Assembly (NCBI RefSeq): GCF_004010195.1
Contig: NC_057718.1
Location: 103,368,754 to 103,405,915, forward strand
Direction of reading: 5' to 3'
DNA from: Chiloscyllium plagiosum
Taxonomy: Eukaryota
DNA: 37,162 bases
Under the pieces are notes generated by a model that saw nothing but the letters and a program-made list of their open reading frames with translations, was not told where the DNA came from and searched no databases. Both the position numbers and the translations under genes were made by a program. Below, one piece after another: positions 988 to 36,837 of this stretch. Position 1 is the first letter of the stretch. The number at the start of each line of letters is the position of its first letter.

Positions 988-1812
988 AAGGAAATGTTCC
1001 ACAAGAGATCAGTGTTGAGTCCACTGTTGTTTGTCATTTCTATAAATGGTTTGGATGAGAATATAGGAGGCGTGGTTAGTAAGTTCATGGTACTTACACA
1101 GGACTTACACAGTTCATAGTAGGGCTTTGCGAGCATTGGTGAACAGAGAGACCTAGGGGTGCAGGTACATAGTTCCTTGAAAGTGGAATTGTCGGTAGAC
1201 AGGGTTGTGAAGGAGGTGTTTGGTATGCTTGCTTTCATTGGTCAGAGCACTGAGTCTGGCAGTAAGGAGGTTAGCTGTCCAGGACATTGGTGATACTACT
1301 TTTAGAATAACGCATTCAGTTCAAGTCTCCCTGCTATTATTACATTGGAAAGATTGCAGAAAAGATGGAAAAGGATGTTGCCAGGATTGGTTGTGAGGAG
1401 AGGTTGGATAGGCTGGGATCCGTGGATCACATGAAGTTGAGGGGTGATCTGATAGAGGTTTATAAAATCATGAGTGTCATGGAAAAGGTGAATAGTGAGG
1501 GTCTTTTCCCAGGAGTCGGAGAATTTAAAACTAGAGGGCATAGTTCTAAGGCGAGAGGGGAAAGGTTTAAAAGGGATGTGAGGGCAACCTTTTCACACAG
1601 AGGATGGTGCATATGTGGAATGAGCTGCCAGAGGAAGTGGTAGGTGAAGGTACAGTTATACATTTGAAAGACATTTGGACAGGTAAATGCATAGGAAAGG
1701 TTTCAAGGGCTATAGGTTAAATGCAGGCAAATGGAACTAGTTTAGTTTGGGAAACCTGGTCAGCATGGACAAGTTGGACCGAAGGGTCTGTTTCCGTACT
1801 GGCTGACTGTTT
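988..1812 (+). mobile_element. Degenerate, internally deleted CR1-clade LINE (RT fragment, ORF2 C-terminus and 3'UTR)
   Basis: 991-1086 decodes as a decayed VPQGSVLGPLLFVIYINDLDENIGGVVSKF RT motif. ORF 1365-1643 contains EERLDRLG...LRGDLIEVYKIM...TRGHS. The 3' tail ttggaccgaagggtctgtttcc is CR1-type. Confidence 0.85.
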
Positions 1813-1826
1813 GAAACGTGTGTATG

Positions 1827-4800
1827 CATTGGACAGGGTGCAGATGCTATTTACAAGAACATTGGAGAGGGAGTGGATGGTATTCATAAGAATATTAGAG
1901 AGGGTGCAGATGCTATTCAGAAGAACATTGGAAAGGGTGAAGATGTTATTCACAAAAACATTGGAGAGGGTGCGGATGGTACTCACAGGAACATTGAGGA
2001 GGGTGCACATGTTATTCACAATATCATTGGAAAGGGTGCAGTTACTAATCACAAGGACATTATAGAGGGTGGAGATGTTATTCACAAGAACATAAAAGAG
2101 GCTGTAGATGGTAATCACAAGAACATTGGAGAGGGTGCGGATGGTACTCACAGGAACATTGGAGAGGGTGCACATGTTATTAACGAGATCATTGGAGAGG
2201 GTGCAGATGTAATTCACAAGAACATTGCAGAGGGTGCGGTTGGTAATCACGGGAATATTGGAGAGGATGTGAATGCTACTCACGAGAAAATTGGAGAGGG
2301 TGCAGATGCTACTCACAAGGACATTGGAGAAAGTGTGGATGCTACTCACAAGAACATTGGAGAAGGTGTGGATGCTACTCACAAGAACATTGGAGAGGGT
2401 GTGGATGGAATTCACAAGTGAAGAGGGTACAGATACTATTCACAAGAGCTTTGGAGAGGGTGCGGATACTACTCATAAGGACATTGGAGAGTGTGCAGAT
2501 GGTATTCAGAAGAATATTGGAGAGGGTGCGGTTGGTACTCTCAAGAACATTGGAGAGGGTTCAGATGTTATTCACAAGAACATTAAAGAGGGTGTAGATG
2601 GTAATCACAAGAACATTGAGAGGGTGCAGATGTTATTCACAAGTAAATGGGGGAGGGTGTGGATGTTATTCACAAGAACATTGGAGAGGGTACAGTTGCT
2701 ACTCACAAGAACATTGGTGAGGGTGTGGAGGTCATTCACAAGAACATTGGAGAGTGTGTGGATGTTATTCACAAGAACATTGGAGAGGGGGCGGAGGTCA
2801 TTCACAAGAACATTTGAGAGGATGCAGATGTTATTTACAACAACATTGGAGAGGGTGTGGATACTACTCACAAGAACATTGGGAAGGGTTTGGATGTTAC
2901 TCACAAGAACATTGAAGAGGGTGCGGATGTTAGTCACAAAGACATTGGAGAGGGTGCAGATCCTATTCACAAGAACATTGCAGAGGGTGCGGATGGTACT
3001 CACAAGGACATTGCAGAGGGTACGGATTGTACTCACAAGGACATTGGAGAGGGTGCAGTTGCGAATCACAAGAATATTGGAGAGGGTGCAGATGTTATTC
3101 ACAATATCATTGGAAAGGGTGCAGTTGCTAATCACAAGGACATGGGAGAGGGTGCAGATGTTATTCACAAGAACATTAAAGAGGGTGTAGATGGTACTCA
3201 CAAGAACATTGGAGTGGGTGCGGATGGTATTCACAAGAACATTGGGGAGGGTGTGGATACTACTCACAAGGACATCAAAGTGGGTGCAGATGCTACCTAC
3301 AAGAACATTGGAAAAGGTTTGGATGTTATTCACAAGAACATTGGCGAGGGTGCGGTTGTTACTCACAAGAACATTGGAGAGGGTGCACAAGCTACTCACG
3401 GGGACATTGAAGAGAGTCCGTTTGTTATTCACACGAACATTGGAGAGGGTGCAGATGGTATTCACAAGTACATTGGAGAGGGTGCGATTGTTACTCACAA
3501 GGATATTGAAGAGGGTGCGGATGCTACTCACAAGAACATTGGAAAGGGTTTGGATGGTAATCACATGAATATTGGAGAGGGTGTGGATGTTATTCACAAG
3601 AACATTGCAGAGGGTGTGGTTGTTACTCACAAGAACATTGGAGAGGGTGTGGATGTTATTCACAAGAACATTGGAAAGGGTGTGGTTGTTACTCACAAGA
3701 ACATTGGAGAGGGTGCAGATGTTATTCACAAGGACATTGCAGAGGGTGTGGTTGTTACTCAAAAGAACATTGGAGAAGGTGTGGATGTTACTCACAAGGA
3801 CATTGGAAAGGGTGTGGTTGTCACTCACAAGAACATTGGAGAGGGTGTGGTTGTTACTCACGAGAACATTGAAGAGGGTGCGGATGTTATTCACAAGAAT
3901 ATTGGAGAGGGTGCAGATTCTATTCAAAAGAACATTGCAGAGGGTGCGGATGTTATTCACAATATCATTGGAGAGGGTGCAGTTGCTAATCACAAGGACA
4001 TTGGAGATAGTGCAGATGTTATTCACAAGAACATTAAAGAGGGTGTAGATGCTATTCACAGGAACATTGGAGAGGGTGAGGATGATATTCACAAGAACAT
4101 TGGAGAGGGTGTAGATGGTACTCACAAGAACATTGGAGAGGGTGTGGATACTACCCACAAGAACATTGGAAAAGTTTGGATGTTATTCACAAGAGCATTG
4201 GCGAGGGTGCGGTTGTGACTCACAAGAACATTGGAGAGGGTGCACAAACTACTCACGGGGACATCGAAGAGATTGCGGTTATTATTCACACGAACATTGG
4301 AGAGGGTGCAGATGGTATTCACAAGAACATTGGAGAGGGTGCAATTGTTACTCACAAGGACATTGAAGAGGGTGCAGATGCTACTCACAAGAACATTGGA
4401 AAGGGTTTGGATGTTATTCATAAGAACATTGGAGAGGGTGCGGATAGTAATCACATGAATATTGGAGAGGGTGCGGAGGTTATTCACAAGAACATTGGAG
4501 AGGGTGCGGAAGCTATTCACAAGAACATTGGAGAGGGTGCAGATTCTATTCAAAAGAACATTGCAGAGGGTGCGGAAGGTACTCGCAAGGACATTGGAGA
4601 AGGTGCAGATGGTACTCGCAAGGACATTGGAGAAGGTGCAGATGGTACTCGCATGGACATTGGAGAAGGTGCGGATGGTACTCGCAAAGACATTGCAGAG
4701 GGGGCGGATGGTACTCGCAAGAACATTGGAGAGGGTGCAGATGCTACTGACAAAAACATTGGAGAGGGTGCAGATGCTATTCACCAGAATATTGGAGAGA

Positions 4801-7800
4801 GTTTAGATGTACTCACAAGATCATTGGAAAGTGTGCAGTTGCTAATCACGAGAACATTGGAGAGGGTGCAGGTGTTATTTGCAAGAACATTGGAGAAGGA
4901 GCGGATGCTACGCAGAAGAACATTGGAGAGGGTGTGGATGTTATTCACAAGAACATTGGAGAGGGTGCAGATGCTACTGACAAGAACATTAGAGAGGGTG
5001 GGGATGTTATTCACAAGAACATTGGCGAGGGTGCGGTTGTTACTCACAAGAACATTGTAGAGGGTGCGGAAGCTACACACGAGAACATGGAAGAGGGTGC
5101 GGTTGTTATTCACAAGAACATTGGAGAGGGTGCAGATTGTATTCACAAGAACGTTGAAGAGGGTGCGGATGCTACTCACAAGAACATTGGAGAGGGTGCT
5201 GTTGTTACTCACAAGAACATTGGAGAGAGTACACATTCTATTCAAATGAACATTGCAGAGGGTGCGGATGGTATCACAAGGACATTGGAGAGGGTGCGGT
5301 TGCTAATCACAAATACATTGGAGAGGGTGCAGATGCTATTCACCAGAATATTGGACATGGTGCACATGTTATTCACAAGAACATTGGAGAGGGTGAAGAT
5401 GCTACTCACAAGAACATTGGAGAGGGTGCAGATGCTACTCACGAGAACTTTGGAGAGGGTGTAGATGATACTCACAAGAACATTGGAGAGGGAGCAGATG
5501 TTATTCACAAGGACATTGGTGAGGGTGCGGTTGATAATCACAAATACATTGGAGAAGGTGCAGATGCTTTTCACCAGAACATTGGAGAGGCTGAAGATGC
5601 TACTCACAAGAACAATGGAGAGGGTGTAGATGGTACTCACAAGAACATTGGAGAGGCTGAAGATGCTACTCACAAGAACATTGGAGAGGGTGTGGATGTT
5701 ATTCACAAGAACATTGGAGAGGGTGTGGATGTTATTCACAAGAACATTGGAGAGGGTGCAGATGGTATTCACAAGAACATTGGAGAGGGTGCTGTTGTTA
5801 CTCACAAGAACATTGGAGAGAGTACACATTCTATTCAAATGAACATTGCAGAGGGTGCGGATGGTACTCACAAGGACATTGGAGAGGGTGCAGTTGCTAA
5901 TCACAAATACATTGGAGAGGGTGCAGGTGCTATTCACCAGAATATTGGACATGGTGCACATGTTATTCACAAGAACATTGGAGAGGGTGCAGATGCTACT
6001 CACAAGAACATTGGAGAGGGTGCAGATGCGACTCACAAGAACATTGGAGAGGGTGTAGATGATACTCACAAGAACATTGGAGAGGGAGTAGATGTTATTC
6101 ACAAATACATTGGAGAAGGTGCAGATGTTATTCACAAGAACATTAAAGAGGGTGTAGATGGTACTCACAAGGACATTGGAGAGGGTGCGGTTGATAATCA
6201 CAAATACATTGGAGAAGGTGCAGATGCTATTCACCAGAACATTGGAGAGGCTGAAGATGCTACTCACAAGAACAATGGAGAGGGTGTAGATGGTACTCAC
6301 AAGAACATTGGAGAGGGTGCAGATGTTTTTCACAATAACATTAAAGAGGGTGTAGATGGTACTCACAAGAACATTGGAGAGGGTGCGGATGGTACTCGTA
6401 AGAGCATTGGAGACGGTGCACATGTTATTCACAATATCATTGGAAAGGGTGCAGTTGCTAATCACAAGGATATTGGAGAGGGTGCAAATGTTATTCACAA
6501 GAATATTAAAGAGGGTGTAGATGGTAATCACAAGAACATTGAGAGGGTGCAGATGTTATTCATAGGAACAATGAAGAAGGTGCAGATGTTATTCACAAGT
6601 AAATGGGAGAGGGTGCGGATGCTATTCACAAGAACATTGGAGAGGGTGTAAATGGTACTCACAAGAACATTGGAGGGGTTGCGGAGGTCATTCACAAGAA
6701 CATTGCAGAGGATGTGGATGTTATTCATAATATCTTTGGAAAGGGTGCAGTTGCTAATCACAAGGACATTGGAGAGGGTGCAAATATTATTCACAAGAAC
6801 ATTAAAGAGGGTGTAGATGGTACTCACAAGAACATCGGAGAGGGTGCGAATGCTACTTAAAAGATCATTGGAGAGGGTGCTGATGCTATTCACAGGAACA
6901 TTGGAGAGGGTGCGGATGATATTCACAGGAACATTGGAGAGGGTGAGGATGGTACTCACAAGAACATTAGAGGGGTTGCGGATGGTATTCACAAGAACAT
7001 TGGAGAGGGTGCGGATGATATTCACAGGAACATTGGAGAGGGTGTGGATACTACTCACAAGAACATTGGAGAGGGTGTAGATTCTATTCAAAAGAACATT
7101 GTGGAGGGTGCGGATGCTACTCACAAGGACATTGGAGAGGGTGAAGATGCTATTCACCAGAACATTGGAGAGGGTGCNNNNNNNNNNNNNNNNNNNNNNN
7201 NNNNNNNNNNNNNNNNNNNNNNNNNNNNNNNNNNNNNNNNNNNNNNNNNNNNNNNNNNNNNNNNNNNNNNNNNNNNNNNNNNNNNNNNNNNNNNNNNNNN
7301 NNNNNNNNNNNNNNNNNNNNNNNNNNNNNNNNNNNNNNNNNNNNNNNNNNNNNNNNNNNNNNNNNNNNNNNNNNNNNNNNNNNNNNNNNNNNNNNNNNNN
7401 NNNNNNNNNNNNNNNNNNNNNNNNNNNNNNNNNNNNNNNNNNNNNNNNNNNNNNNNNNNNNNNNNNNNNNNNNNNNNNNNNNNNNNNNNNNNNNNNNNNN
7501 NNNNNNNNNNNNNNNNNNNNNNNNNNNNNNNNNNNNNNNNNNNNNNNNNNNNNNNNNNNNNNNNNNNNNNNNNNNNNNNNNNNNNNNNNNNNNNNNNNNN
7601 NNNNNNNNNNNNNNNNNNNNNNNNNNNNNNNNNNNNNNNNNNNNNNNNNNNNNNNNNNNNNNNNNNNNNNNNNNNNNAGATGCTACTGACAAGAACATTG
7701 GAGAGGGTGCAAGTACTATTCACATGAACATCGGAGAGGGTGTGGACCTACTCACAATGACATTGGAGAGGGTGCAGATGCTACTGACAAGAACATTAGA

Positions 7801-10593
7801 GAGGGTGGGGATGTTAATCACAAGAACATTGGCGAGGGTGCGGTTGTTACTCACAAGAACATTGAAGAGGGTGCGGATGCTACTCACAAGAACATTGGAG
7901 AGGGTGTGGAGGTCATTCAAAAAAACATTGGAGAGGGTGTAGATGTTATTCACAAGAAAATTGGTGAGGGTGTGGATGCTATTCACAAGAACATTGGAGA
8001 GGGTACAGATGCTATTCACAAGAACATTGGAGAGGGTGCGGATGGTATTCACAAGATCACTGGAAAGTGTGCAGTTGCTAATCACGAGAAAATTGGAGAG
8101 GGTGCAGATGTTACTGACAAGAACATTGGAGAGGGTGTGGATGTTATTCACAAGAACATTGGAGAGAGTGCAGATGCTACTGACAAGAACATTGGAGAGG
8201 GTGCGTATACTATTCACATGAACATTGGAGAGGGTGTGGATACTACTCATAAGAACATTGGAGAGGGTGTGGATGGTATTCCCAAAACATTGGAGAGGGC
8301 GCGGAAGCTAATCACAAGGACATTGGAAGGGTGCGGATGCAGGTGCTATTCACCAGAATATTGGAGAGGGTGAAGATGCTACTCACAAGAACATTGGAGA
8401 GGGTGCGGATGGTATTCACAAGAACATTGGAGAGGGTGCAGGTGCTATTCACCAGAATATTGGAGAGGGTGTAGATGATATTCACCAGAACATTGGAGAG
8501 GGTGAAGATGCTACTCACAAGAACATTGGAGAGGGTGCGCATGGTACTCACAAGAGCATTGGAGAGGGTGCAGATGTTATTCACAAGATCTTTGGAAAGT
8601 GTGCAGTTGCTAATCACAACAGCATTGGAGAGGGTGCAGATGCTATTGGCAAGAACATTGGAGACGGTGCGGATGCTACACAGAAGAACATTGGAGAGGG
8701 GGTGGATGTTATTCACAGGAACATTGGAGACGGTGCGGATGTTATTCACAAGAACATTGGAGAGGGTGTAGATGGTACTCACAAAACATTGGAGAGAGTG
8801 CGGATGTTATTCACAAGAACATTGGCGAGGGTGCGGTGTTACTCACAAGAACATGGGGGAGGGTGCGGAAGCTACTCATGAGAACATTTAAGAGGGTGCA
8901 GTGGTTATTCACACAAATATTGAAGAGGGTGCAGATGGTACTCACAAGAACATTGGAGAGGGTATGGATGCTACTCACAAGAGCATTGGAGAGGGTATGG
9001 ATGCTACTCACACGAACATTGGAGAGGGTGCACATGTTATTCACAAGATCATTGGAAAGTGTGCAGTGGCTAATCACGAGAACATTGGAGAGGGTGCAGA
9101 TGTTATTCGCAAGAACATTGGAGAAGGTGTGGATGTTATTCACAAAAACATTGGAGAGGGTGCAGATGCTACTGACAAGAACATTGGAGAGGGTACGGAT
9201 GCTATTCACACGAACATTGGAGAGGGTGCAGATGGTATTCACAAGAACATTGGAGAGGGTGCGGAAGCTATTCGCAACAACATTGGAGAGGGTGCAGATT
9301 CTATTCAAAAGAACATTGCAGAGGGTGCGGATGGTACTCACAAGGACATTGGAGAGGGTGCAGATGGTATTCACAAGAACATTGGAGAGGGTGTGGATAC
9401 TACTCACAAGGACATTGGAGAGGGTGCAGATGCTACTAACAAGAACATTGGAGAGGGTGCGGAAGCTATTCACAAGGACATTGCAGATGGTGCGGATGGT
9501 ACTCACAAGAACATTGGAGAGGGTGCAGTTGCTAATCAGAACATTGGAGAGGGTGCAGATGCTATTCACAAGAATATTGGAGAGGGTGTAGATGGAATTC
9601 AAAAGAACATTGGAGAGGGTGCAGACGGTACTCACGAGAACATTGGAGAGGGTGCAGATGTTATTCACAATATCATTGGAAAGGGTGCAGTTGCTAATCA
9701 CAAGGACATTGGAGAGGGTGCAGAGATATTCACAAGAACATTAAAGAGGGTGTAGATGGTACTCACAACAACATTGGAGAGGGAGCAGATGCTATTCACA
9801 CGAACATTGGAGAGGCTGCGGAGGTTATTCACAAAAACTTTGGAGAGGGTGCGGAGGTTATTCACAAGAATATTGGAGATGGTGCAGATGGTACTCACAA
9901 GGACATTGGAGAGGGTGTGGATGATATTCACAAAAACATTGGAGAGGGTGCGGATGCTACTCACAAGAATATTTGAGAGTGTGCAAATGTTATTCACAAG
10001 AACATTGGAGAGGGTGTGGATGCTACTCAAGAATATTGGACAGTGTGCAAATGTTATTCACAAGAACATTGGAGAGGGTGTGGATGCTACTCACAAAAAC
10101 ATTGGAGAGGGTGCGGGTGTTATTCACAAGAACATTGGAGAGGGTGTAAATGGTACTCACCAGAACATTGGTGAGGGGCAGATGTTACTCCTAAAAACAT
10201 TAGAGAGGGTGCAGATGTTATTCACAAGAACATTGGAGAGGGCACAGATGTTATTCACAAGAAAATTGGAGAGGGTGTGGATGCTACTCAGAAGAACATT
10301 GGAGAGGATGCAAATATTATTCACAAAAATATTGGAGAGGGTGCAGATGTTATTCACAAGATCATTGGAGAGGATGCAGATGGTATTCACAGGAACATTG
10401 GAGAGTGTGCACGTTATTCACAAGAGCATTGGAGAGGGTGCAGGTGCTACTCACAAGAACATTTTAGAGGGTGCAGATGCTACTCACAGGAACATTGGAA
10501 AGTGTGCAGATGTTATTCACAAGAGCATTGTAGAGGGTGTGGATGCTACTCAGAAGAACATTGGAGAGGGTGCAGATGTTATTCACAAGAACA
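1827..10593 (+). repeat. 33-bp minisatellite (consensus TTGGAGAGGGTGCAGATGTTATTCACAAGAACA), ~160 units before and ~90 after the gap; derived from CR1 ORF2
   Basis: Continuous 33-bp periodicity. Translations show an 11-aa period (HKNIGEGADVI / LERVQMLFTRT / TLSNVLVNNIC). Confidence 0.97.
7178..7677. other. Assembly gap (500 N) inside the minisatellite
   Basis: Run of exactly 500 N, probably a fixed-size scaffold gap, so true array length is unknown. Confidence 0.98.
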
Positions 10594-11040
10594 GTTCAAA
10601 GAATGAGAAACCACACTGATGAGGAGAAATTGATGAAGTTGGGACTGTTGACCCTGGGAGAGGAGAAGGCTAAGAGGTGATTTGATAGAGGTTTTCAAAA
10701 TCATGAGCAGCTGAATAGACTGGGTGAGGCTGCTCCTGCTTGTGAAAGGAAGCAGAATGAGTTGGGCACTGATTTAAAGTGATGTGTAAATGAAGGAAGG
10801 GTGAAGTGCAGGTAACCATTTTCAGCCTGTGACTAATTTGCGTCTGGACCGTAATGCTGGAAAAAATGTGGTGGAGGCAGATTCAATGGAGGCATTGAAG
10901 AGGGGCACTGAATGGTTATGGATAAACATGGAGTGCAAGGATATGGGGAAAAGGTAAGAGATTGGCTCTAGGGGATAGTACCAACATAGATATGATGGAC
11001 TGTATTGCCTGATTCTGCACTGTAACCACTCAGTGATTTT
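10594..11040 (+). mobile_element. CR1 LINE 3' portion, the direct continuation of the last minisatellite unit
   Basis: In frame with the last unit: LERVQMLFTRT-VQRMRNHTDEEKLMKLGLLTL(+1 frameshift)ERRRLRGDLIEVFKIM, followed by a CR1 3'UTR (gtggtggaggcagattc... gatggactgtattgcctgattctgcactgtaac). Confidence 0.85.
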
Positions 11041-11149
11041 GTTGGGTTGCCAGTACTTTCTTATTCTATTTCAGAACCAAACGGTGAACCAAATATAATG
11101 TTTTCCTCAGCCCATCAGCCTGGGGAGGGGAGACATGCCATGGTAGGGG

Positions 11150-11430
11150 GGTCCAGAATAGTGGGCATAGGTTTAAGGTGAGAGGGGAGAGATTTAAAAG
11201 GGACCCGAACGGGCAACTTTTTCACACAGAGGGTTATGTGTGTATGTAATGTGCTGCCAGAGGAAGTGGTGGAGGCTGGCACAATTACAACATTTAAAAG
11301 GCATCTGATTGGATACATGAATAGGAAGGGTTTAGAGGGATTTGGGCCAAATGCTGGCAAACAAGACGGGATTAATTTACGACGGACGAGTTGGACTGAA
11401 GAGTCTGTTTCCATGCTGTATAGCTCTATG
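11150..11430 (+). mobile_element. CR1 LINE 3' end (5'-truncated)
   Basis: gggcataggtttaaggtgagaggggagagatttaaaaggg...; ORF 11236 reads NVLPEEVVEAGTITTFKRHL; tail ctgtttccatgctgtatagctctatga. Confidence 0.88.
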
Positions 11431-11784
11431 AAGAAAATGTGGGTGTCCCTAAAGTATCCAGAGAGCTGTGGTGGGTGGGTGTGTATCTCAACCCCACTTA
11501 GTTCAAAAACCGAGCGGTTGTGACCCCTTTACAAATAAGAGGTGTTACTTAAATAGCTTAGAGGGTCTCAATGCACCGTCCTCAGAGACAGAGAGAGACT
11601 CCTCAGAGCCCCAGAAATCAGCTTCACAGGACTTTAACCAGCCAGGGGAGTAAAGTGTGAAAGTTTTGCCCCTAGGGTGGGGGATTGCTTCAGTGACTGA
11701 ACCGCGCCCCCTGTGTACAACCTTCCCTGAGAGAAATAGGAATGACTAGAGGAGAGTAAAGAACGGCATTCCCCAAACAAATCA

Positions 11785-13063
11785 AGTCAGCATGGCAAAA
11801 ATAATTTTTATTTTATATTCAGATTTCATGACCGCACACATCTTAAGGAAAACTACTACAACTGACTCAGTTATTTTACAATCCGAACCGTTTCTATCAG
11901 AATAAGACTGTGTGCGATTTTCACTTGCCCCTTGCTTCCTCCGATAGCGAAAAAAAACTGCTGTCCACAAGCATCTGTTCAAACCACGATGAAAGGCATT
12001 AACTCATCCCACTTAGTAAATCTTATGCATGCCATCTCATACCAAACTGCTACTTTTACAAAAAAAATTGCAATAATACATTTAATTATTTCCAGTCCTT
12101 TTTTTTTCTCTCTCGTTTTTCTTTTGCACAACAAAAAAGAATCGTTTTCTATTTACAAGGTGTACATAAATTCTTCCGGTTTGATCGCTTTAAAACGAGT
12201 AACACGCAGGACGATGTTGCTGATGCTCTTTTGTTGTTGTTTAGAAAGAAGGGACAAAGTAACAAAATCAAAACAAAGGGTGTAAACAGACTCGCGGAGA
12301 CAGAGGGAAAAAAGAACTCTTCAACCAGTCCTGGATGGTTTTAAATTGCATCTCACAGAATGTGGCGGATCCTGCATTGTTGGAACGGCCTCTCTCTCTT
12401 GTAAATTCCTGCTACCCCACTCTCCTTAACACACTGTCAGTAACAGCTGATTGATCCCTGTTGATAGCTGCAGCTTTCCCTTCCTACCCGATTTACATCT
12501 GTTCAGGTCAATTCAAATATGGTGAGTAAATGAATTGGACATGCAAATTCAAGCCCTAGGCTAGAGACTGCCTAGTTCGAATTCTGGGAAGGCAGTCTTC
12601 CGCCCCATATACTTTGTGTGTGTGTGTGAAAAATCATGACAATAACAGTTCTCAGTCATTTGCAGGACAATTGTAAGGCTGTGTTTGCACTAAGGAGGCT
12701 CATGGAGGAGGATTGGGGCCTTGGAAACAACACACATAGTGTGGAAGAAAGTTCACATAGTTATTTTTTAATCTATAAGAAACACCATATTATAGGGACA
12801 GTACAATACCATGTACAAGTTATAATTAAAAGTCTTCTCTCTCTCTCTCTCATCATCCTATGTGATTCTACAATAGCATTTAACAGAATGTCAAGTCCCC
12901 AGGAGTTGATGCTCACAAGACGTTGCCTGGTTTCAGGATCCCTGTGAAAGATGTTGTTTCAGATTGGTCCACAGCTGATGTGAAGAACATAGATCCCGTC
13001 TCACTGCTTTCTAATCAGTGTTTGATCGCAAGCCCACCATGGGTGCATGCTATTTCCCTTCAG
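11785..13063 (-). other. MEIS1: Meis 3'UTR (~1.28 kb)
   Basis: Lies between the TAG stop (13064-13066) and the poly(A) region. Contains blocks I recognise from vertebrate MEIS1 3'UTRs (TTCCACACTATGTGTGTTGTTTCCA; GGGCTTGAATTTGCATGTCCAATTCATTTACTCACCATATTTGAATT; GTAAAAGTAGCAGTTTGGTATGAG). The end coordinate is approximate. Confidence 0.8.
11807..11812 (-). terminator. Polyadenylation signal AATAAA
   Basis: Minus strand reads GAAATCTGAATATAAAATAAAAATTATTTTTGCCATGCTGACTTGATTTGTTTGGGG, i.e. the hexamer followed by a U/GU-rich downstream element. Confidence 0.8.
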
Positions 13064-13350
13064 CTATTGAGCATGGATGTCCATGACTTGTCCTCCCATT
13101 GTTGGGTCACCAGGGTTGAGCATTGTGGGGCTAGATGCTGACATTGACATCCCAGGATGGGCTGGTGGTCCTCCATGCAACATCATTGCTGGGTGGTGGG
13201 GGTGTCCAGGAATGTACGAATGCATGGGAGGTCCGTGTCGTAGTTGGGCAGGGTGAGGGGGCATCTGGGGAGGGGTGTAACTTGGCTGTCCCATGCTCAT
13301 ACCCATTGGACCACCCTGTGATACATAATCTCCTGGCATACCTTGCAAAC
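13064..13350 (-). CDS. MEIS1: Meis last exon (exon 13/12b), long 'b-type' C-terminal activation domain (G)LQGMPGDYVSQGG...GGQVMDIHAQ*
   Basis: Acceptor TTTTTTGCAG|GT at 13351/13350, phase 1, matching the upstream exon. The His/Pro/Met-rich Meis C-terminus ending VMDIHAQ is diagnostic. Confidence 0.93.
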
Positions 13351-16074: not shown

Positions 16075-16417
16075 CTAGAAAGGAGATAAAAATCCAAGAA
16101 GATGCCAGAAAATGAGCAAAGTCAAAAAAAAACAGATAGCGCTAAAAAAGACCCTATTCTTTTGTTAAACACCAGGATCGTAGGGTCGAGCGGGGTAATT
16201 GGATCCTGCAACAGGAGAAATCATTCTCCTCCTCTTTTTTTAAATCATTAGGTGCATAGAAGACAGGCAAGGCAAGGCAGGCAGTTTGAAGTGCAGCAAA
16301 AGATGAGGGTGATAATCCTGATGAGCACTCTGAATGGTGTGGAATGAAGATGTAAACACTGGTGAGCAATGAGAAGGGAGTATGAAGGAATACACGCTGT
16401 ACAATGTGAACACCTAC

Positions 16418-16507
16418 CAGGGGGCCGGATACCCATATGCTGCTGTCCGTCCATCACAAAACCTCCCATCGGCTGACCGTCTGGGTTGTAGGGTGCACCT
16501 TGGCTCA
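16418..16507 (-). CDS. MEIS1: Meis exon 11 (90 nt): (V)[29 protein letters not shown](G)
   Basis: Acceptor TCCTCAG|TG at 16508/16507, donor CTG|GTAGGT at 16418/16417, phase 1-1. The peptide matches the post-homeodomain region of Meis1. Confidence 0.95.
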
Positions 16508-17289
16508 CTGAGGATTAAGAACAAGTCTGGATATCATTTTCTGTCGACAGCATTCAGGTCTGATTCAAACACTGGAACACCTTGCCTGACGAGGCTTCAT
16601 AATACAAAGCATATGAACGGAGTTTCAACTCCACTGAGTCATTTCTCACACAACCATTTGAAAGAGGAATGAAAATACTTGCCTGACTGATGTAATCTGG
16701 CCGAGAGCACTTGACCGTATGTGCTCACTTTCATTTCAAATGCTAAACGGATTATTATTAACTTTTATTTTCATTAATTACTGCTTCGTACAGGTACTGG
16801 ATATTTATGTTAGTCTAACAAGGAGAAAGCTGTTTATGTTCTGCTAGCAATGGTGCTAACTCATTTGTATCTTGTACATTTCCCTATTTGCAATGAGTTT
16901 GCTCAGAAGCTGGTGTTAGCTAAAAACAAAATGGAAGATTCCGAAAGGTCTTTGACTGCTTTTTTTTTGGCAGAGTTACCACTAATTACTTTAAGAATAG
17001 ATACCACATCTGCTCCGTACTCTTTTGTGCGATATCTTCGCTATTATTTTATCTTCAGGAGCAGTCAGGAAACTTTGTGTTAGCCAGGACCCAGGAAGTG
17101 ACCCTTTGCTTCTTGCAGTTGGAAAATCTGACACAGGATGGTAAAACCGGCCTTGAAAATTTCCTGTGGGTACAGTTCCAGAACAATTAAAAATAAAGTA
17201 CCCTTTCTGTTCAGCAGGTGGATTTTTCTTGCTTTCCGTGGAATCATCACAAGATACAACACAGACAGGCAAAACTAGGCCAACCCTGC

Positions 17290-17760: not shown

Positions 17761-19104
17761 TTCAAATGGCTTTGCCTTATATTTTTGCTTGTGCTTTCTC
17801 TCCCTTGTGATATGATTTTAAAGCACGATAGTTTGTTTTTCAAAGAGAACTGTAGAGCTTCTTTGGTTTGCACAGTCTTCCCTGTCATCAGCTGCTTAAA
17901 GGACCAAAGGTCAATATGTAGTTCCAGCAGAGGTGCTAGACACTGTAGAAAAATGCCAAAAGTCTATGAGAACAATGGCTTCATTGTCCGTATTTTCAAA
18001 TTGTGAAGCATCAGTTCTTTTTTAAAGATTAGAGATTAAAGATGCCTTGTAACGAAACCAGCAACACGATTATAAAGATCAAGGCTATGCCTTAGACACA
18101 CAAAGCACGTGGAGCTAATCTGCACACATTCTGTCCAAGTTTCAAACTGTCCTGCTATTAAAACCGTTCAGCTGGAGAATTCCACTCCATGGAATTCCAA
18201 GGCCCCGGGTTAAAATGACTGCCATTTTAGACAAGAAGGTGGTTGAATGGTTTTGCCGTTAGATGGTTACAGTGGAGGTCACGGCCAAAGCTCAAGGCAA
18301 AATGACACTACATCACCTCTTAAATATCATCATGGCCATACTGATAATTCCTTTCTGAACCCAGTGGAGTGGGAGTTAGGTGAAGGAGATCATCATTGCT
18401 GCAATGCGGTTAAATGTTCATAAATGCCATATTAACCTAGTCCTTTTTTATTGCATTGTTCTGTTTCTCCCTGTGCCAGCCCTGTTAGACCATCTTCCTT
18501 CTGTGTTTGAGAAGCCTAGCAAGGACACGATGCTCCACTGATATCACTCTCCAGCGAGCAGCTCAGAGATCTAGAACCATGGCTCAGCCACGAATTTCCT
18601 TGCACCCTTCCATCCCCACCTGGGAGACACCTCCACTCAACTCAGAGACGTCACACTCATCCACTCACCAACATTACACTCATTCACTCAGTAATGTCAC
18701 ACTCATCCGCTCAGAGATGTGTATGTCACATGTGCCTCGTGCTAACCATGAGAGGGTGTGAACAGTTATTGGGTTAGGAACTTGTTGATCATAGTACAGC
18801 TGCTCATGGTTTAGCTGAAGGGTTCACGAAAACAAAAATCGAGGAAGTTTCAATGAACTAAGAATCTGCAACTACAACAGGGTCATGTGAGCAAAGAAAT
18901 ATGGGATCCCCTTCTAAATCTTTCATCTCTCTCTCTCTCTCCTTTCCTTTCTGATCTTCGTCAAAACCCATCTCTCTCACCTGTCCTTTTTCAGGCTCAG
19001 TGTCAAATTTTGTTTGATAATGCTCTTAAAAGTATCTTGAGGTGGTTTAGGAAGGTGCCACACAAATGCAAAATCTTTTTGTGAAAGAATAAACAAAGGC
19101 GCCC

Positions 19105-20699: not shown

Positions 20700-21940
20700 C
20701 ATAGAATAGTACAGTGCAGCACAAAAAGGAGCATATTCAACTCATCGATTCTGCACTGGCTTTTTATGAACGTACAAATTAGAAGTAGATATAGGCAATT
20801 TGACCCTTCCATCATACTCTGCTTTTCAATAAGATTGTGACTGATCTGCCTGCGTTCTAAATTCCACATTCCCATCTAACATTGACAACCTTCCCAAGAA
20901 TCAATCCAACACTGTCTTACAAATATTTGCTGACTTCCTCGACCACCACCACCATTTCCTGAGGGAGGGACTTCCAATACTGCACAGCCCTCTCAGAGGA
21001 AAAAAAAACTCCCCCTCATCTCTGACTTAAAGGGTTCACCGCTAATTTTAAAATAGTGTCCCCTAGTTTCAGACTAATCCACAAGAGGAAACATCCTTTC
21101 CACATGCATCTTGTCAGGAGCATTCAGGATCTCATACACTTCAATCAAATCACCCCGGTGAAAACAAGCCCAGACGGTCCAACCTTTCCTCATAAGACAA
21201 CCCACTCATTCCATGTCTCAATCTGGGTAACCACCTCTGAACCGCCTCCAATACATCTACATCCTTAGAAAGGAGACCCAAACTGCACAAAGTGTTCACG
21301 ATGTGATCTCACTAATGCCCTGTAAGATCCAATTATGTTCATTTCCTCTTGTAACAAAATATAACATCCCATCAACCTTTCAAATCACTTGCTGTAGTTG
21401 AATTCTAACTTTTTGTGATTCATGAACTAGAACACTTAGATTCCTCTGTACCTCAGAATTTTGCAGTGCTTTTCCATTTAAATTACAGTCTGATATTTTA
21501 TCCTTTCTGCCAAACTGAATGACTTCACATATACTGTCAAAGCTTTGTCCATTTACTTAACCAATCTATTACTGTCCTCACCCTTGCTGTAGCATCTTCA
21601 CAACATGTTTTCTGACCCACCTTTGTGTCATCTGCAAATTGTGTCATCATGCCTTCAATCTCCTCATTTAAGTCAGTCATATACACTGTAAAAGGTTGAG
21701 GGCTCAGCCCAGACCCCCATGGGAACCCACTCACCATCTCTTAGCAATCAGAAGATGACCCATTCCTGCACAGTCCCCGCTTTTCTGCCAGCTAGCCAAT
21801 TGTCTAAACACGTTGGTATAGTATACTCTATACCACGACATCCAGCTTTGCATAACAACATTCTGAGAGTGTAAGTACATCAATGACAATTTCCCTTTCA
21901 CAAAACCCATGTTGATTCGTCCTGATTTGCTTGGGTTTTT
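20700..21940 (-). mobile_element. CR1 LINE (RT domain to 3' end), decayed
   Basis: ORF 21537-21737 reads SGFPWGSGLSPQPFTVYMTDLNEEIEGMMTQFADDTKVG, the RT 'FADDTK' motif. CR1 3' tail near 20780-20830. Confidence 0.85.
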
Positions 21941-21944
21941 GATT

Positions 21945-22312
21945 ACTTATAACATCCTAACAGGACTAGACAGGATAAATGCAGGAAGGATATTCTCAAT
22001 GACTAGCGAGTCCAGAACTCGGGGTCCATTTTAAGGTCACGGAGCAGGCCATTTCGGACTGTGATGAGGAGAAATGTCTTCACCCAGAGAGTGGGGAGCC
22101 TGTGGAATACGCTGCCACAGAAAGACCAGAACATTGAATGTTTTCAAGAAGGAGTTAGATATAGATCTTATGGCTAAAGAATCCAATGATTTGGGGAGAA
22201 AGTAGCAACAGGAACTGAGCTAGATGATCTACCATGATCATGTTTAATGGGGGAGGAAATTCAAGGGGCTGAACAGCCTACTCCTGCTCCTATTTTCTAC
22301 GTTTCCATGTTT
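21945..22312 (+). mobile_element. CR1 3' fragment nested in opposite orientation inside the minus-strand CR1
   Basis: acaggactagacaggataaatgcagg...aggagaaatgtcttcacccagagagtgg...ggggctgaacagcctactcctgctcctattttct. Confidence 0.8.
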
Positions 22313-22690
22313 GTCCAAGTGCCCAGTTATAATCGCCTCAGTAGTTGATTCTAACACCTTTCCCATGACAGATGTCAAACTAACTGGGCTATAGACTCCT
22401 GTTTTCTGCCTCACTCCCTCTTTGAACAGAGGGGTTATATTTGCTACTTTCCAGTCTGATGGAACCTTTCCAGAATCAAATGAATTTTGTAATATTAGTA
22501 TTAGCATTAACATTAATTATTTGTAAACATTTGTAATATCAACATTAATATTAACACCAATGCTCCTACCACCTCATTAGCAATCTCCTTTAAGACTCTT
22601 AGATGAAGGCCATCTGGACTCAGAGATTTACATTCCACACCTGCATCACTTTGCTTTGTGCTGCTGACTATAGTTTCATAAGCTCCTCTC
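22313..22690 (-). mobile_element. Upstream continuation of the minus-strand CR1 ORF2
   Basis: ORF 22244-22513 reads SFDSGKVPSDWKVANITPLFKEGVRQKTGVYSPVSLTSVMGKVLES, a CR1 RT N-terminal motif. Confidence 0.85.
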
Positions 22691-24220: not shown

Positions 24221-24619
24221 TTTGGTGGACAGTGATAAGAAATGGATACAAATTGTATTTATATAACCCCTTCCATGTCTGAAGGATTTAATTCCCAGCC
24301 AATTCCATAGGTGGGTGTAACCCCAGTGTCACTACTTGACCAAGACAAATGTATTCACTTTTGACTGGGGCATGGACATAGTTTATATCTGGTCTATGCG
24401 CCAACTCAGTCAAACAGATGAGCTATCAGAACAAGGCAAACAGGATTTCTTACGAAAGAAACAAAGGCTAGGCTTGAATACAGGCCTAGATTTGAAATGT
24501 CATCAGTTTGCAGTAGGGAGTCTCACTGTTTATTAAGCATACCATTGTAATAATTCTTCTACCTTTACAATGGTCCCCATTCTCCCTTTAAAGAACCCAA
24601 GATGATTGATGCCTAAAAT

Positions 24620-24835
24620 AAAACAAAGAAGTGTGGATACTAGAAATCTGAAACAAAACCAGGAAGTGTTCAAGAAACTCAGCAGGTCTGGTAGCACCTG
24701 TAGAGGGAAATCAGAGTTAATGTTTCAGGTCCAGTGACCCACCTTTGGCACTGGACTCAAAACATTAACTCTACTTTCTCCCTACAGGTGCTGCCAGACC
24801 TGCTGAGTTTTCCCAGCAATCCCTGTTTTTGCATT
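24620..24835. mobile_element. Penelope-like inverted-repeat hairpin element
   Basis: aaactcagcaggtctggtagcacctgtag...gagttaatgttt pairs with aaacattaactc...ctacaggtgctgccagacctgctgagttt. Confidence 0.8.
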
Positions 24836-25285
24836 GTTGATTAGTGCTCTCTGGCTAATCTGAAAAATGCTTTCCTTTTTAATGTCTCCCGCCCCCACTA
24901 AGAAAATAAACGTTGAGCAGAGATGAGTGCAAACTGACCAAAATAAAATGGCTCATACTCTGTAACCCTTGGATGTCAGAACTAAAAGTAGAAGGTTTTC
25001 ATGTATAGAGGCACAAACATTTCTGCTGCTGGACTGCCATATTATACCAGCTATAAGTAGGAGGTGGGAGACTAAAATTTGCAGACAGAAACTCTTGACA
25101 GCAACGTATTCTCTTGTTTGTGGTACTGTTCCTTGAAGCAATCTTTAAGCTCCAGAATACAGGCCAGGTGGAGGTTTATGTGCCGCTGCAAAGCTAGCTA
25201 TTCAGGCAACAGTCTTAACGCAGATTTTTTAAAAAAGTTGTGAGCGTGCAGCAACATCTCTGGATTTTAAAACAGTTGCACCCAG

Positions 25286-26779: not shown

Positions 26780-26920
26780 TCCAGTTCTGAGGGAGGGTCA
26801 CCGGACCCGAAATGTTAACTCTTGATTTCTCTCCACTGATGCTGCCAGCTGCTGAGCTTTTCCAGTAATTTTCAGTTTTGCTTCTGACTTTCATCGCCTG
26901 CAGGTCCTTTCAGTTTTTAT
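26780..26920 (+). mobile_element. Penelope-like half-hairpin with a hammerhead-like motif
   Basis: AGTT-CTGAGGGA-GGGTC-ACCG-GACCC-GAAA-TGTT-AACT, then gatgctgccagctgctgagcttttccag. Confidence 0.7.
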
Positions 26921-27547
26921 TTAATATTGTCCTCCTAGATTTTCTTGTCTAAAATCGACCATCGTGACAATCCATTGCCACCTCATTCAGACCGAGCCGA
27001 GCTTCCTCTTAAATGCACGGGAGGGGACAGAACAGGGTGACACAGTTAGGGCAAGAGCAAAAGGAAAGGACATAAAAGGCAGGAGGGACCACTCCTCCCT
27101 TACTGAGAGAGGGGCTATCAAAGAATTAAATATTGGGAAAGTAGGGGGACAAGCTGGAACCAACTACAAGTTTTTCCCTTGCACACAGAATCCAAACTCA
27201 ATGGGTTATATTTACAAAACAAGAAAAAACACAAGGGACACAGGGAATGCACGATGTACATGTTTTTCCTAAAAGAGTGCTAAGTGTGTAAAACAGATGA
27301 TCTGCATAGAACAAGAAACTTGGCTGGGTTTCAAGAAAGGAGTGGATAAGTTTATCTTCATCTCCAAATGGGACTTTGGGTTATTCAGAGATACACTGAA
27401 GGGACATTAAGGATAGGAGGGTGCTAGATGGGCTGAACCTTTTCTCCAATCTGAAGCTGCTACAATATCAAAGGGCAAATTGGATGCTTGCTTTCAAATT
27501 TGCTCCAACAAGAAACTGAGAGACTTGATAAGGGCAAGGCTGTTAAT

Positions 27548-27984: not shown

Positions 27985-28640
27985 TCATTAAAGATGGGAG
28001 GACAGGTAGAGTGATCTGTTAGTAAAGCATAGTGCCCGAGACTTCATTAAAAGGGTCACAGACTAAAAGAACAGGGAGGTTATGATGAACTCCTATAAGG
28101 CACTGGTTAGCCCTCAGCTGGAGGTCTGTGTACAATGTTGGTGCTACATTATGGGAAGGACAGGAATGCAGTGCACAGAGTGCTGGAGAAATGGTTCCAG
28201 GGATGTGATCCTCCAGTTCTGTCAAAAATCTGGAGGGGACTATTTTCCTTGAAGATGAGTTGGCTGAGGGGGGATTTGATAGACATTTCCAAAATCATAA
28301 ATGGTCTAGACAACATAGATTGGGAGAAACTGTTCCCACTTGGAAATGGATCAAAACCCAGAGGGCACAGTCTTAAAGAGTTTTGCAGAAGCAGCACATG
28401 ATGTGAGAAAAACAACTATTCTTGTAGTGAGTAGCTGGTGTCTGGAATACACTGCCTGGAAATGTGGGGGAGGCAGGTTCAACTGAGGCGTTCAAGAGGG
28501 AATTGGATGGTGATTCAAATGAAAATAGTTTGCAGAGTTATGGGGAAAAGATAGGAGATTGGCACTGAGTTAAAATGCTCAGAGGTAGTGCAGACACAAT
28601 GGGCCGAATAGCCTCATTCTGCACGGTGATGATTTTGTGA
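27985..28640 (+). mobile_element. CR1 ORF2 C-terminus and 3'UTR
   Basis: ctcctataaggcactggttagccctcagctgg (LYKALVxPQLE-like). ORF 28135 reads LRGDLIDISKIINGLDNIDWEKLFP...PRGHSLK. Confidence 0.88.
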
Positions 28641-29084
28641 GTGTGTCACTCTTGGTTTGTTAACATGAAACCCTGCAAACCAAGGCAGACTCTCGATTTG
28701 GCTTTTGCTGAAAATGTTTGCACCACAACAGAACCAGACTCAGCTTTCTCAGGGCACAGGAAAAACAAAACCTGCATCCTTCTACAATGGGGCAATGGAC
28801 TTGGATGTCCAATGCTGTACAGCAGCCACACCCACATCCCCACCTCTAGTGCTGGGTGTTTGATGGGTTCATGCAGCTTTGTGGAGCCCAAGGTGCCACA
28901 CTATGTCATCCTTCTCAGTGACGAGGGAGATGTAGTACAATCGATCTCGGTGTTTCAGGTTTAGCAAGGAGAATTTGGGCATGTTTCGACTCCTGTCTGG
29001 CATTACTCACTCCCTGACAGATATGCAAATAAGTGATCTTGGCTGCTCACAATTGTAGGTCCTCACAATTAATCCTTGCAAATA

Positions 29085-29700
29085 ATCCCAGAGCAGGAGG
29101 TCATTTAGTCTAGCGTGTCTGCACTGGCTCTCCAACCAGCATTATGACTTTGTGCCATTGGCCTGCCTCTTCGCCATACCCTGCACATTATTACCATCAA
29201 TGCCCCAATTGCTTCTACCTCCAGCACACTTCCAGGATATACACACATCACCAATCACTCATCACGTAGAAAGGATTTTTCTCACCTTGTATTTGCTTCT
29301 TTTGCAAATTACTTTAAAATTCAGGAGCTGGAGTAGGCCATTCAGCCCCCTGAGCCTGCTCCCCCATTCAATATGATCAGGGTTGATTATCCAACTCAGT
29401 CTCCTGCTCCTACATTCTCCTCTCTTCCTCCCTTTAGTTCTATGAGCTGTATCGGCATCTTTCTTGAAAGTTTTCAATGCTTTGGCCTCAATTTTCTCCT
29501 GTGGCAGAGAATTGCACAGGCTCCCCAATCTCTGGGTGAAGACATTCTCCTCATCTCAGTCCTACATGGCCCATCCCTTTCCTTAGTCCGTGACTCCAAT
29601 CTTGGATTCCCTGGTCATTGGGAACATCCCTCAATAGAAATCTATAGAAATCTTTAAATCTGTGCCCACTCGTTCTTGAATCTTTTCCAAGCAGAAGCTC
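29085..29700 (-). mobile_element. Two nested CR1 3' fragments
   Basis: gagcaggaggtcatttagtc... interrupted by ggagtaggccattcagccccctgagcctgctcc...ctctgggtgaagacattctcctcatctc. Confidence 0.7.
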
Positions 29701-31582: not shown

Positions 31583-32125
31583 GAACATAGAACAATACTG
31601 CATAGGAACAGGCCCTTCGGCCCACAATGTTGTGCTGAACATGACACCAAACTAAACTGATCCCTTCTGCCTACCCTTGGCCCATAGCCCTCCACTCTTT
31701 CCATAGCCATGTGCTTATCTAAAAGTCCCTTCAATACCCCTTTCTAACTGCTTCCACCACCAATCCTGGCAGCACATTCCACATTCTTACCACTCTGTGT
31801 AAAAACTTCTCCCTCTGAATCCTTTGAACTTTCCCCCCTTTCACCTTAAATGTATGCTCCCTAGTTTTAGACATTTCTACTCTAGGAAAAAGATTCTGAC
31901 TCTCAACTCTACCAATGTATCTCACAATTTTACAGACTTCTATCAAGTCTCTGCTACTCCGGAGAAAACAACCCAAGTTTTTCCAGCCTCTCCTTATAGC
32001 CCACACCATCTAACACCCTCTAAAACCTTCTCTGCACCCTCTCCAAAACCTCCACATCCTTCCTTTAATGTGATAACCAGAATTAAACGCAATCCTCCAA
32101 GGGTGGCCTCAGCAAAGTCTTACAA
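31583..32125 (-). mobile_element. CR1 ORF2 C-terminus and 3'UTR
   Basis: ORF 31731-32009 reads DLIEVCKIVRYIGRVESQNLFPRVEMSKTREHTFKV. Tail gaacatagaaca...ggcccttcggccc. Confidence 0.88.
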
Positions 32126-32880: not shown

Positions 32881-33045
32881 AAAATATCGAACTTCCTTAT
32901 TTCTTCTTTTTTTTCTTTATTTTATAATTTTCTTTCTCTAAGAATTTGTACTGAAGGATCTGTACCTCTGTACCTAAGATGTTGCTGTAAGTTGTGACTT
33001 GTCACAGTGTTCATTTGAGTATGTGACAATAATTCTAATTCTTCG

Positions 33046-33265
33046 ATACAAAAGCAGAATTTGCTGGAAAAGCTCAGCAAGCCTGGCAGCACTGTGGAGA
33101 GAAATCAGAGTTAACGTTTCAGCTCCCTTCAGTGACCCTTCCTTAGAACTTGATCTGAAACGTTAACTCTGATTTCTTTCCACAGATGCTGCCAGACCTG
33201 CTGAGCTTTTCCAGCAATTTCTGTTTTTGTTTCTGATTTCCAACATCCACAGTTTTGTTGGTTTT
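33046..33265. mobile_element. Penelope-like inverted-repeat hairpin element
   Basis: tgctggaaaagctcagca...aaatcagagttaacgtttcag pairs with ctgaaacgttaactctgattt...tgctgagcttttccagca. Confidence 0.85.
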
Positions 33266-33559
33266 AATCTAATTCTTTGATAACTGCTTGATAAGTATTC
33301 TCTTAATGAATTAAAGACAGTCCTTATCACTTACTTTTTTTGCATTCACAATAATAATGGCAGCAGCAACCATTCCTATGACAATCATGTCTACAACCTC
33401 TGTTAAGGTGACTGCTACTTCAAGTCTGAGATCTCCCCTTCAAGTCCACATCAAACCTGGCTGTCTGCACACCAGATATCTGTTAACTTCTCTGATCATT
33501 CTGCCTATTTGATACTTTTAAAAACTCAGACACAGACACAACACTCAAACCAGTCACTC

Positions 33560-34560
33560 AACAACAATAACTTGAATTTCTACCGTAAAATATCCCTGGG
33601 CAATTCACAGGAGACACCAACACACTCAATTTGACACTGAAGCACAAAGATAATATTACAGTAACTGATCAAAAAACCCAAGTCATGAGGGAAGGTCTAG
33701 AAGAGAGGCAGCAGAGAGGTTAGGAAGAAGGAGAAAAATAAATCCAGATTATGGGACGCAACTGATAACGTGAGAGAGACCAAAGTTGGGGTATATGCCA
33801 GAATTAGCCGAGAGCACACAGATCTTGGAGAGTTGTAGGGGCTGCAGAGGTGGGGGTGGGAGAAGAGCAGGCCACAGAGAGAATTGGAAACAAGGATGAG
33901 AATTTTAAAATTCGGAATTAATGAGAAGTCATCAAAGGTCAGCCAGCATGGCTGATGGATGATAGGCTGGGACAGAAGCAGCCGAGATCTGGATGACTTC
34001 AAGTTTCCAGAGAACAGGACACAGAAGACCAGCCAGAATTACATTGAAACATTCAAGTGTGGAGGTTACAAAGCTCTGACGATGAGTCTTACAGGACTCG
34101 TAAAATTAATTGTCTTTCGCTCTCCACAGAGGCTACCAGACCTGCTGAGTTTCTCCATGACTTTCTGTTTTGATTGCAGATCCCTGCAGTGTTTTTGCTA
34201 TGGAGGTAACCTACACAGGGATGAGGATGACACCAGTGGACACCCTTCAGCCAGTGTGCAGTCCAGCAATATGACTGAGATGGAAATGAGAGGCCTTATC
34301 CAAACAGCAAGCATGTGGTCGGGATTTCTCCTGGGCGTGAAGGTAACACCAAAGGCACGAGCTGGCTAGTTTGACCCCAGGAAAGGGAATGTAGTCAGCA
34401 CTGAGGGAACAGAGTTGGGAGGTTGTGAATGAAGACAAGTGTTTTCCAAGGACCTTCTTGATGTTTACTTTGAGGAACTCTCTGCACATCCAAGATTAGA
34501 CGGCAGACAAGCAGTGCAACAGTTCAGAGACAGTGGGAGGGGTCAATAAAGGCAGTGGTG
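33560..34560 (-). mobile_element. L2-clade LINE remnant (with a hairpin-family fragment at ~34110-34200)
   Basis: ORF 33697-34002 reads CWL...NFKILILVSNSLCGL...PYNSPRSVCS, resembling the L2 ORF2 C-terminal 'HWLP..FKILLL.YKSLHGL..PY.P.RSLRS' motif. Confidence 0.65.
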
Positions 34561-36585: not shown

Positions 36586-36837
36586 GTCTGCCATTCCTGG
36601 CAGCTGGCTCAGTCCCCCAGGTCTCATTGGCAGCTCAGGAACGGGAACATTTCCGTCGGCTTCTGATAATATGCTCTTCCAGACCTTAAACCAACTCAAC
36701 CTGCAGTATACCAATGTGGAGCCTTAGCAAGGCCTGTGGCACCTCTGGGAAAAATGGTGCCAGGGTGGGTAGTGTCAGCTAAATAGCTCATTAGGTGACC
36801 AATAACACGAGCATCCAAGGTCATCGCCACAAGGGAC

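Follow-up and report, generated by a model that had tools for sequence, protein, structure and literature searches.

Satellites that contain a piece of a LINE, such as those of chicken, Phodopus and cetaceans, are multi-copy families with long monomers. Examples are the chicken HinfI/SCR1 repeat, the CR1-C centromeric repeats, Phodopus PROsat and the common cetacean satellite (accessible parts of PMC9659126 and PMC6947457). Other tandem arrays reside inside their parent elements, as do mouse Ms6-hm and Hm-2 in MaLR LTRs, VNTRs derived from B1 and the Alu-derived minisatellites (PMC6947457, PMC9659126, both in excerpt). Among human minisatellites and satellites, 7,276 of 31,472 (23%) are TE-derived, mostly as single-locus clusters that have expanded locally, and 94% of the TE-derived cases have neither flanking direct repeats nor a short terminal unit, going by the available portion of PMC3389668. 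In a search of mostly open-access literature, with supplements, Repbase and Dfam outside its scope, no description was found of the array reported here or of any shark CR1-derived minisatellite, and the accessible parts of PMC10620051, PMC3747384 and PMC4992247 describe no such array.

The present locus is probably a single-locus minisatellite, both large and old, that has grown inside a dead LINE fragment. It lies in a stretch of 37,162 nt of Chiloscyllium plagiosum contig NC_057718.1 (the window), to which all coordinates refer. Its components and immediate neighbours are as follows:

1009-1801, plus strand: upstream neighbour, the 3' part of a common-subfamily LINE (P0061 residues 625-904 collinear; self-BLAST; subfamily scores)
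1813-1828, plus strand: 5' tip of the parent LINE, roughly 5 codons ahead of the motif (left boundary uncertain by a few bases)
1829-7177, plus strand: left array part, 162 complete 33-bp units and a 13-bp partial unit
7178-7677, no strand: scaffold gap inside the array, 500 N
7678-10593, plus strand: right array part, a 20-bp partial unit and 88 complete units
10594-11040, plus strand: remainder of the parent LINE, with ORF2 C-terminal codons that are decayed farther downstream, followed by 3' UTR and tail
11144-11431, plus strand: downstream neighbour, a 3' fragment of the common, very high-copy LINE subfamily
11770-13342, minus strand: last exon of MEIS1, with its coding part (13064-13342), 3' UTR and poly(A) signal (11807-11812)

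TRF calls a 33-bp period over 1827-10593, and unit-by-unit parsing resolves the span 1829-10593 into 250 complete 33-bp units and 2 partial ones. The units run head to tail and their length falls within the 10-100 bp range of minisatellites, to which class the 250 complete copies assign the array. Both the unit count and the array length are minima because the 500-N gap interrupts the array. The original prediction, made without mention of this gap, had described an array of about 9 kb produced by 250 or more amplifications; the tandem array and the number of units are borne out by the parsing, whereas the size figure includes the Ns (as do the 266 copies of TRF), the bases read in the array being 8,265. 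The unit had been read as LERVQMLFTRT, which holds for the translations of the consensus and of the last unit (10561-10593). This exact peptide occurs in 5 of 234 gap-free units, and 34 of the 234 have a stop in the ORF2 frame. On average the units diverge by 12.5% from the consensus and by 19.3% from each other; 212 of the 250 are distinct in sequence and 17 carry indels. Since the first and last units are only 2 bases and 1 base away from the consensus, respectively, the latter is likely to be close to the founder. The divergence from the consensus, together with the stops, the indels and the multi-unit duplications described below, points to an old array without a coding signal.

The fixed, round size of the gap might mean that two separate arrays of the 33-bp unit were joined in scaffolding, a reading that we hold to be very improbable. 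Consistent with it, no exact 80-mer is common to both halves, which excludes a simple overlap, and no listed contig bridges the gap, the contigs having been placed on 10528-11900 only. Against it, the halves share rare unit types, with 6 identical left-right pairs that are 4-5 differences away from the consensus, and they have blocks of units in common (units 96-98 versus 181-183 at 1% divergence, and 39-42 versus 238-241 at 2.3%). The left-right divergence of 19.0% also falls between the left-left (19.9%) and right-right (17.9%) values, and the 5' tip of a LINE on the left has its complementary 3' remainder on the right, on the same strand.

The nature of this LINE is indicated by its relation to known ORF2 proteins. 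A full HMMER search with an RT fragment from 22.3-22.5 kb of the window supplied the reference proteins; 3 of the 150 returned (P0061, P0103 and P0122) have the C-terminal motif, and all three contain Pfam endonuclease (Exo_endo_phos on P0061) and RVT_1 domains. By tblastn, residues 792-823 of P0061 correspond to 10561-10656 and residues 824-839 to 10658-10705 (joint E 8e-4), with one extra base near 10657 in the parent remainder. The last unit with its flank outscores 500 of 500 shuffles against P0061, and is matched more weakly by P0103 (31 of 500 shuffles reach the score) and P0122 (7 of 500). The unit alone is not significant against the ORF2 proteins (18, 77 and 202 of 500 shuffles reach its score), nor are the flank alone or the tip with the first unit. 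Word-index protein searches with the last unit and flank, and with the RT fragment, returned no match. The parent is thus homologous to the C-terminus of an ORF2 that combines endonuclease and RT, with the unit located about 120 codons before the ORF2 end.

The details of the junctions are as originally predicted: the first unit is preceded by YA, and the last continues in frame into the flank, where a one-base shift near 10657 is followed by the RRLRGDLIEVFKIM block. The flank is collinear with the LINE segment 3' of the motif, on which the prediction had been staked; 10594-11040 had further been labelled CR1 3' UTR, and while it does represent the 3' part of the LINE, it is not 3' UTR throughout. 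Much of it is decayed ORF2, because the reference ORF2 continues for 75 residues beyond the block that ends at 10705.

On the basis of ORF2 motifs, we take the parent element to be a member of the CR1 group. The array-bearing fragment is without the RT part, and the matched ORF2 proteins carry no family name; this putative label draws on the motifs and on the dominance of CR1-like LINEs in a shark genome. The latter is that of the whale shark, in which such LINEs are described as abundant or dominant in the available text of 10.1101/443036.

Further evidence comes from LINE copies elsewhere in the window, of which two are of particular relevance:

28164-28646, plus strand: unamplified copy most closely related to the parent within the window (collapsed-locus score 312.5 versus a shuffle maximum of 92)
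31596-32062, minus strand: LINE copy cited in the original prediction, of a subfamily other than the parent's

The array was reduced to one unit in a script, and this collapsed locus was aligned with ten LINE-like fragments of the window. Against six of the ten it scored higher than all 200 shuffles, but not against the remaining four. Beside the 28-kb relative, the scores and shuffle maxima are 207.5 versus 95 at 27 kb, 178 versus 105 at 1 kb, 146.5 versus 98 at 29 kb, 145 versus 105 at 32 kb and 104 versus 70 at 21 kb; in the four alignments shown, the match extends from the tip or the unit start through the flank. In self-BLAST the parent remainder matches the 28-kb copy at 67% over 328 columns (E 1e-16), although this relative has a 10-bp deletion in the unit region. 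Subfamily scores group the parent with the 28-kb and 29-kb copies. The 32-kb copy had been put forward as an unamplified relative on account of an exact 16-nt match to the unit at 32031-32046 (minus strand); the match is real, as 300 shuffles of the unit reach 13 at most, but the copy groups with the common LINE subfamily and not with that of the parent.

Among the other repeats of the window, the parent-subfamily copy at 29080-29700 (minus strand) is apparently split by another repeat at about 29331-29633, and 20950-22629 (minus strand) contains longer decayed fragments of LINE ORF2, including RT-region codons. A dispersed element at 24614-24844, 33035-33271, 26780-26925 and 34091-34181 has copies that match in both orientations, which suggests that it is largely palindromic (MITE-like). 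TRF additionally reports 3.3 copies of a 23-bp repeat at 18640-18715 and purine-rich simple repeats at the window ends (1-188 and 36833-37162).

The 16-bp tip has 9/16 identity to each of three window LINE copies and 4/16 to the end of the unit. Its joint agreement with the three copies (27/48, p 0.0017-0.0024), as opposed to 4/16 with the unit end, indicates that the tip is LINE-like rather than a partial unit. The two halves of the unit itself behave differently when set against three codon-anchored copies: bases 1-16 agree at 42/48 positions (shuffle p < 1/5000), whereas bases 17-33 agree at 18/51 (p 0.08-0.14), no better than chance. When the whole unit is compared ungapped with the rest of the window, the best match is 20/33, and 333 of 500 shuffles of the unit do as well or better. 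At its end the unit reads CA, against TG in the three anchored copies, implying that the parent copy changed first or that the end was overwritten. Together with the unmatched bases 17-33, this leaves the founder sequence incompletely accounted for, the parent subfamily's bases at these places being absent from the 40 contig rows listed (of 126). Judged from position and flanks, the LINE homology can be considered secure, and the second half of the unit would be either derived or subfamily-specific. Through the collapsed locus and unit bases 1-16, the array also answers the other point on which the prediction had been staked, namely that the unit should align with CR1 better than random sequence does.

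The parent behaves as a 5'-truncated member of a dispersed, high-copy family whose copies share the 3' end, given the depth of about 3,000x at 10666-10711 and the related copies at 28 and 29 kb. In tblastn with the ORF2 protein, no upstream ORF2 belonging to the parent was detected. CR1 insertions often are without a clear target-site duplication. Around the parent insertion, which is an old copy, the search for such a duplication gave only one 5-bp match, away from the junctions. In the upstream neighbour (1009-1801) the motif is also present, unamplified, at 1345; this neighbour belongs to the common subfamily and is not the parent. With this neighbour, the parent locus (1813-11040) and the downstream neighbour (11144-11431), three LINE 3' ends are arranged head to tail on the same strand beyond the 3' end of MEIS1. 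A minisatellite may be classed as TE-derived if its unit is TE-like or if array and TE overlap over one period or more, and the present array belongs to this class.

We consider it likely that this minisatellite, which sits in register between the tip and the 3' remainder of one dead LINE, arose in place by a single duplication of 11 codons, with unequal exchange and gene conversion accounting for its later expansion. The claim of a tandem amplification beside the 5' tip of a truncated CR1, with the parent still attached, is thereby supported, an origin in place being the best reading of the locus. The growth of the array has left several traces. Five repeated blocks of 3-10 units with 1-6% divergence stand above all 100 shuffles of the unit order (for example, units 103-112 versus 121-130 at 2.7%), and two of the five join the left and right halves. 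Most of the variation is concentrated in six unit sites, the remaining sites varying at 7.3%, and all four allele combinations are present at sites 13/14, 14/22 and 19/22, a pattern that recurrent mutation could also give. Exchange or block duplication has accordingly rearranged the unit variants. A regular higher-order period is absent: across lags of 1-59 units, mean divergence stays flat at 0.18-0.20. Where a CG variant exists, TG is over-represented (odds ratio of TG:CG versus TA:CA 3.2, the units not being independent), as expected from the decay of methyl-C. The irregular blocks, four-gamete patterns and TG excess would fit a long history of irregular unequal exchange and conversion. The hypervariable unit positions 4, 13, 16, 19 and 22 are mostly three bases apart, in the same register, and lie in the LINE-divergent part.

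How the first duplication came about is less apparent from the sequence context. No direct repeats of 5-10 bp were found around the amplified motif, the only repeat at the two boundaries being one of 2 bp (CA). Four 99-nt strands of the array show no unusual fold (z-scores -0.72 to +0.24), the array strands contain no canonical G4 motif with loops of up to 7, and no Rfam family was recognised in the window. The lack of direct repeats could be explained, together with the closeness of the array start to the 5' truncation point (16 bases away, in an element of about 500 bases), if the first duplication was made during insertion, by RT stutter or re-priming at the 5' end or from a source with a short tandem run, with exchange merely enlarging it. 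Such an origin is nevertheless improbable: the first unit, the last unit and the consensus share changes at bases 17-20 and 32-33 that are absent from the anchored copies, which fits the amplification of a copy that had already decayed. Moreover, only 17 contigs in the sequencing run X1 and 18 in X7 fit two places of a two-unit stretch, so that the existence of many copies with a short run is unsupported.

For the origin in place, we propose the following sequence of events. A short CR1-group copy would have inserted beyond the MEIS1 poly(A) site, at a distance of about 0.75 kb, and then decayed, after which one 33-bp stretch beside its 5' end may have been duplicated by slip or repair using at most 2 bp of homology. 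Misaligned recombination or conversion would then have enlarged and reshuffled the array. The array would have been methylated in the germ line, with TG in excess where CG arose, and may have remained confined to one or very few loci, probably as a length-variable sequence without a selected function.

Sequencing runs allow the number of such loci to be gauged. A run search with 7678-12400 listed 24 runs, of which 20 have some share of this sequence and 7 have half or more; no RNA holder is among those listed, which is evidence neither way. The contigs of four runs were placed on 10528-11900 at 80% likeness, X13 being the one small-share run used. A single-copy contig of X1 covers 10687-11188 at a depth of 9.09 without any difference to the window, and one of X7, from another individual and study, covers 10687-11186 at a depth of 12.4 with 2 differences. 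Relative to these contigs, the last two units have a summed contig depth of 149x in X1 and 374x in X7, the parent subfamily one of 2,936x and 3,288x, and the common subfamily one of about 500,000x; summed contig depth is not copy number and serves here for the order of magnitude only. The unit depths, set against that of the common LINE, are in line with a single array that has some hundred units, not with an abundant satellite. By this rough measure, the unit is three orders below the common LINE, far from the thousands of copies or more over many arrays that make an abundant satellite.

The depth values bear on the idea that the array is a member of a dispersed family of LINE-derived satellites which originated elsewhere and reached this homologous LINE copy by gene conversion or recombination. 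This could account for the second unit half, which differs from the window copies, and it is in keeping with the one contig of a second organism that has tandem units, its locus being unplaced. We regard it as improbable, since a unit depth of 150-370x single copy is about that of one array alone, while a true high-copy family reaches 500,000x, and since both ends of the array are in exact codon register with their flanks. The contig in question is among those that contain the tandem joint (10593 back to 10528), which was seen in 3 contigs of X1, 3 of X7 and 1 of X13, among the contigs listed. The joint contig of X13, from a second organism and a run presumed to be RNA, has a depth of 3.5 and 43 letters on its short side. 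This one contig suggests that a related species, too, has the unit in tandem, at an unplaced locus. The unit depths of X1 and X7 differ by about 2.5-fold, whereas the two LINE-family controls agree within 12% (in two runs whose libraries are not on record), which hints that the array differs in length between individuals.

The age and decay of the array also bear on whether it could be coding. A protein-coding tandem repeat was tried and rejected, as there are stops in every frame and no synonymous excess in six frames (lowest p 0.089). The variant that comes nearest, and which we find scarcely credible, is that the array is or was a coding repeat in another frame of the old ORF2, with the 11-residue unit GEGADAIHKNI on the plus strand. 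In this frame only 4 of 215 units have a stop, open stretches of 300-525 codons exist, and over 1831-10593 (plus frame 2) the three single changes that make a stop occur 4, 0 and 0 times in 250 units (permutation p 0.005, uncorrected for six frames). Yet the frame has no synonymous excess (p 0.75), variation is highest at its second codon positions, and the longest open stretch is reached by 57% of unit-order shuffles. Indels are found in 17 of 250 units, some of the deletions having been copied with blocks (units 25/144 and 196/211); there is no Pfam family at cut-off and no Atlas look-alike, and X21 RNA has no reads at 10528-10619 (2% of the run, one 3'-biased library). The scarcity of stop-making changes in plus frame 2, without a synonymous excess, is probably due to chance.

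The gene next to the array is MEIS1. Its last exon encodes 92 aa at 13067-13342 (minus strand) that are 100% identical to a bamboo-shark Meis1b record, and the region at about 16250-16510 (minus strand), recognised in the ORF list, is presumably an upstream MEIS1 3' exon. The array lies beyond the MEIS1 poly(A) signal, its end about 1.2 kb away. In RNA run X21 the depth is 3.7-7.7 at 11770-11900 and 0 at 11448-11769 (2% of the run, one 3'-biased library); from this we infer a transcript end near 11770-11800, and no read-through of MEIS1 into the array was seen in that 2% of X21. In a broader and rather doubtful interpretation, the 3' part of shark CR1 ORF2 might give rise to tandem arrays repeatedly, with truncated insertions seeding them at their 5' junctions. 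The present array would then be at a single-locus founder stage that predates a species split, with its length still changing, and would be near enough to the MEIS1 3' end to provide a methylated, size-variable boundary of a developmental gene.

The conversion of TEs into minisatellites is a common and published process, of which the shark array is a large and clean new example rather than a new process. What had been called a clear birth of a satellite from a TE is accordingly so in that the parent is still attached, but not a fresh birth, the array being old and diverged and the process already described in the accessible text of PMC3389668. It points to no new process or function; its value is that of a teaching case, in which a tandem repeat was born within a transposon and both flanks of the parent are kept in codon register. 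The array may also serve as a VNTR marker. Its flanks and the MEIS1 exon are unique anchors, so that the first duplication could be dated, and its mechanism revealed, from the orthologous alleles of related sharks. For about 94% of the human cases this mechanism is unexplained, as far as the available part of PMC3389668 indicates.

Compared with the human TE-derived minisatellites, as presented in the same portion of PMC3389668, the shark array is alike in that the unit is part of a TE, the array overlaps the TE, and both flanking direct repeats and a short terminal unit are absent. It differs from most of them in deriving from LINE ORF2 codons, and from the human set, which was selected at 95% identity or more and has mostly two units, in having at least 250 units with about 19% pairwise divergence. 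Most published TE-derived minisatellites are far smaller. Like Ms6-hm/Hm-2 and the B1 and Alu arrays, it is still inside its source element and, once a first duplication had occurred, would have grown through slippage, conversion or unequal crossing-over, but its parent is a LINE while theirs are LTRs or SINEs (PMC6947457, PMC9659126, both in excerpt). The Haber-Louis model, in the excerpt of PMC6947457, has the first step proceed from direct repeats of 5-10 bp, which are absent around the shark unit. With the LINE-derived satellites the array shares an origin of tandem DNA from CR1 or L1, in several of them from ORF2 or the 3' end (accessible parts of PMC9659126 and PMC6947457). It is set apart from these satellites by a 33-bp unit that lies wholly within ORF2, by the retention of both parent flanks and by a depth that points to one locus.
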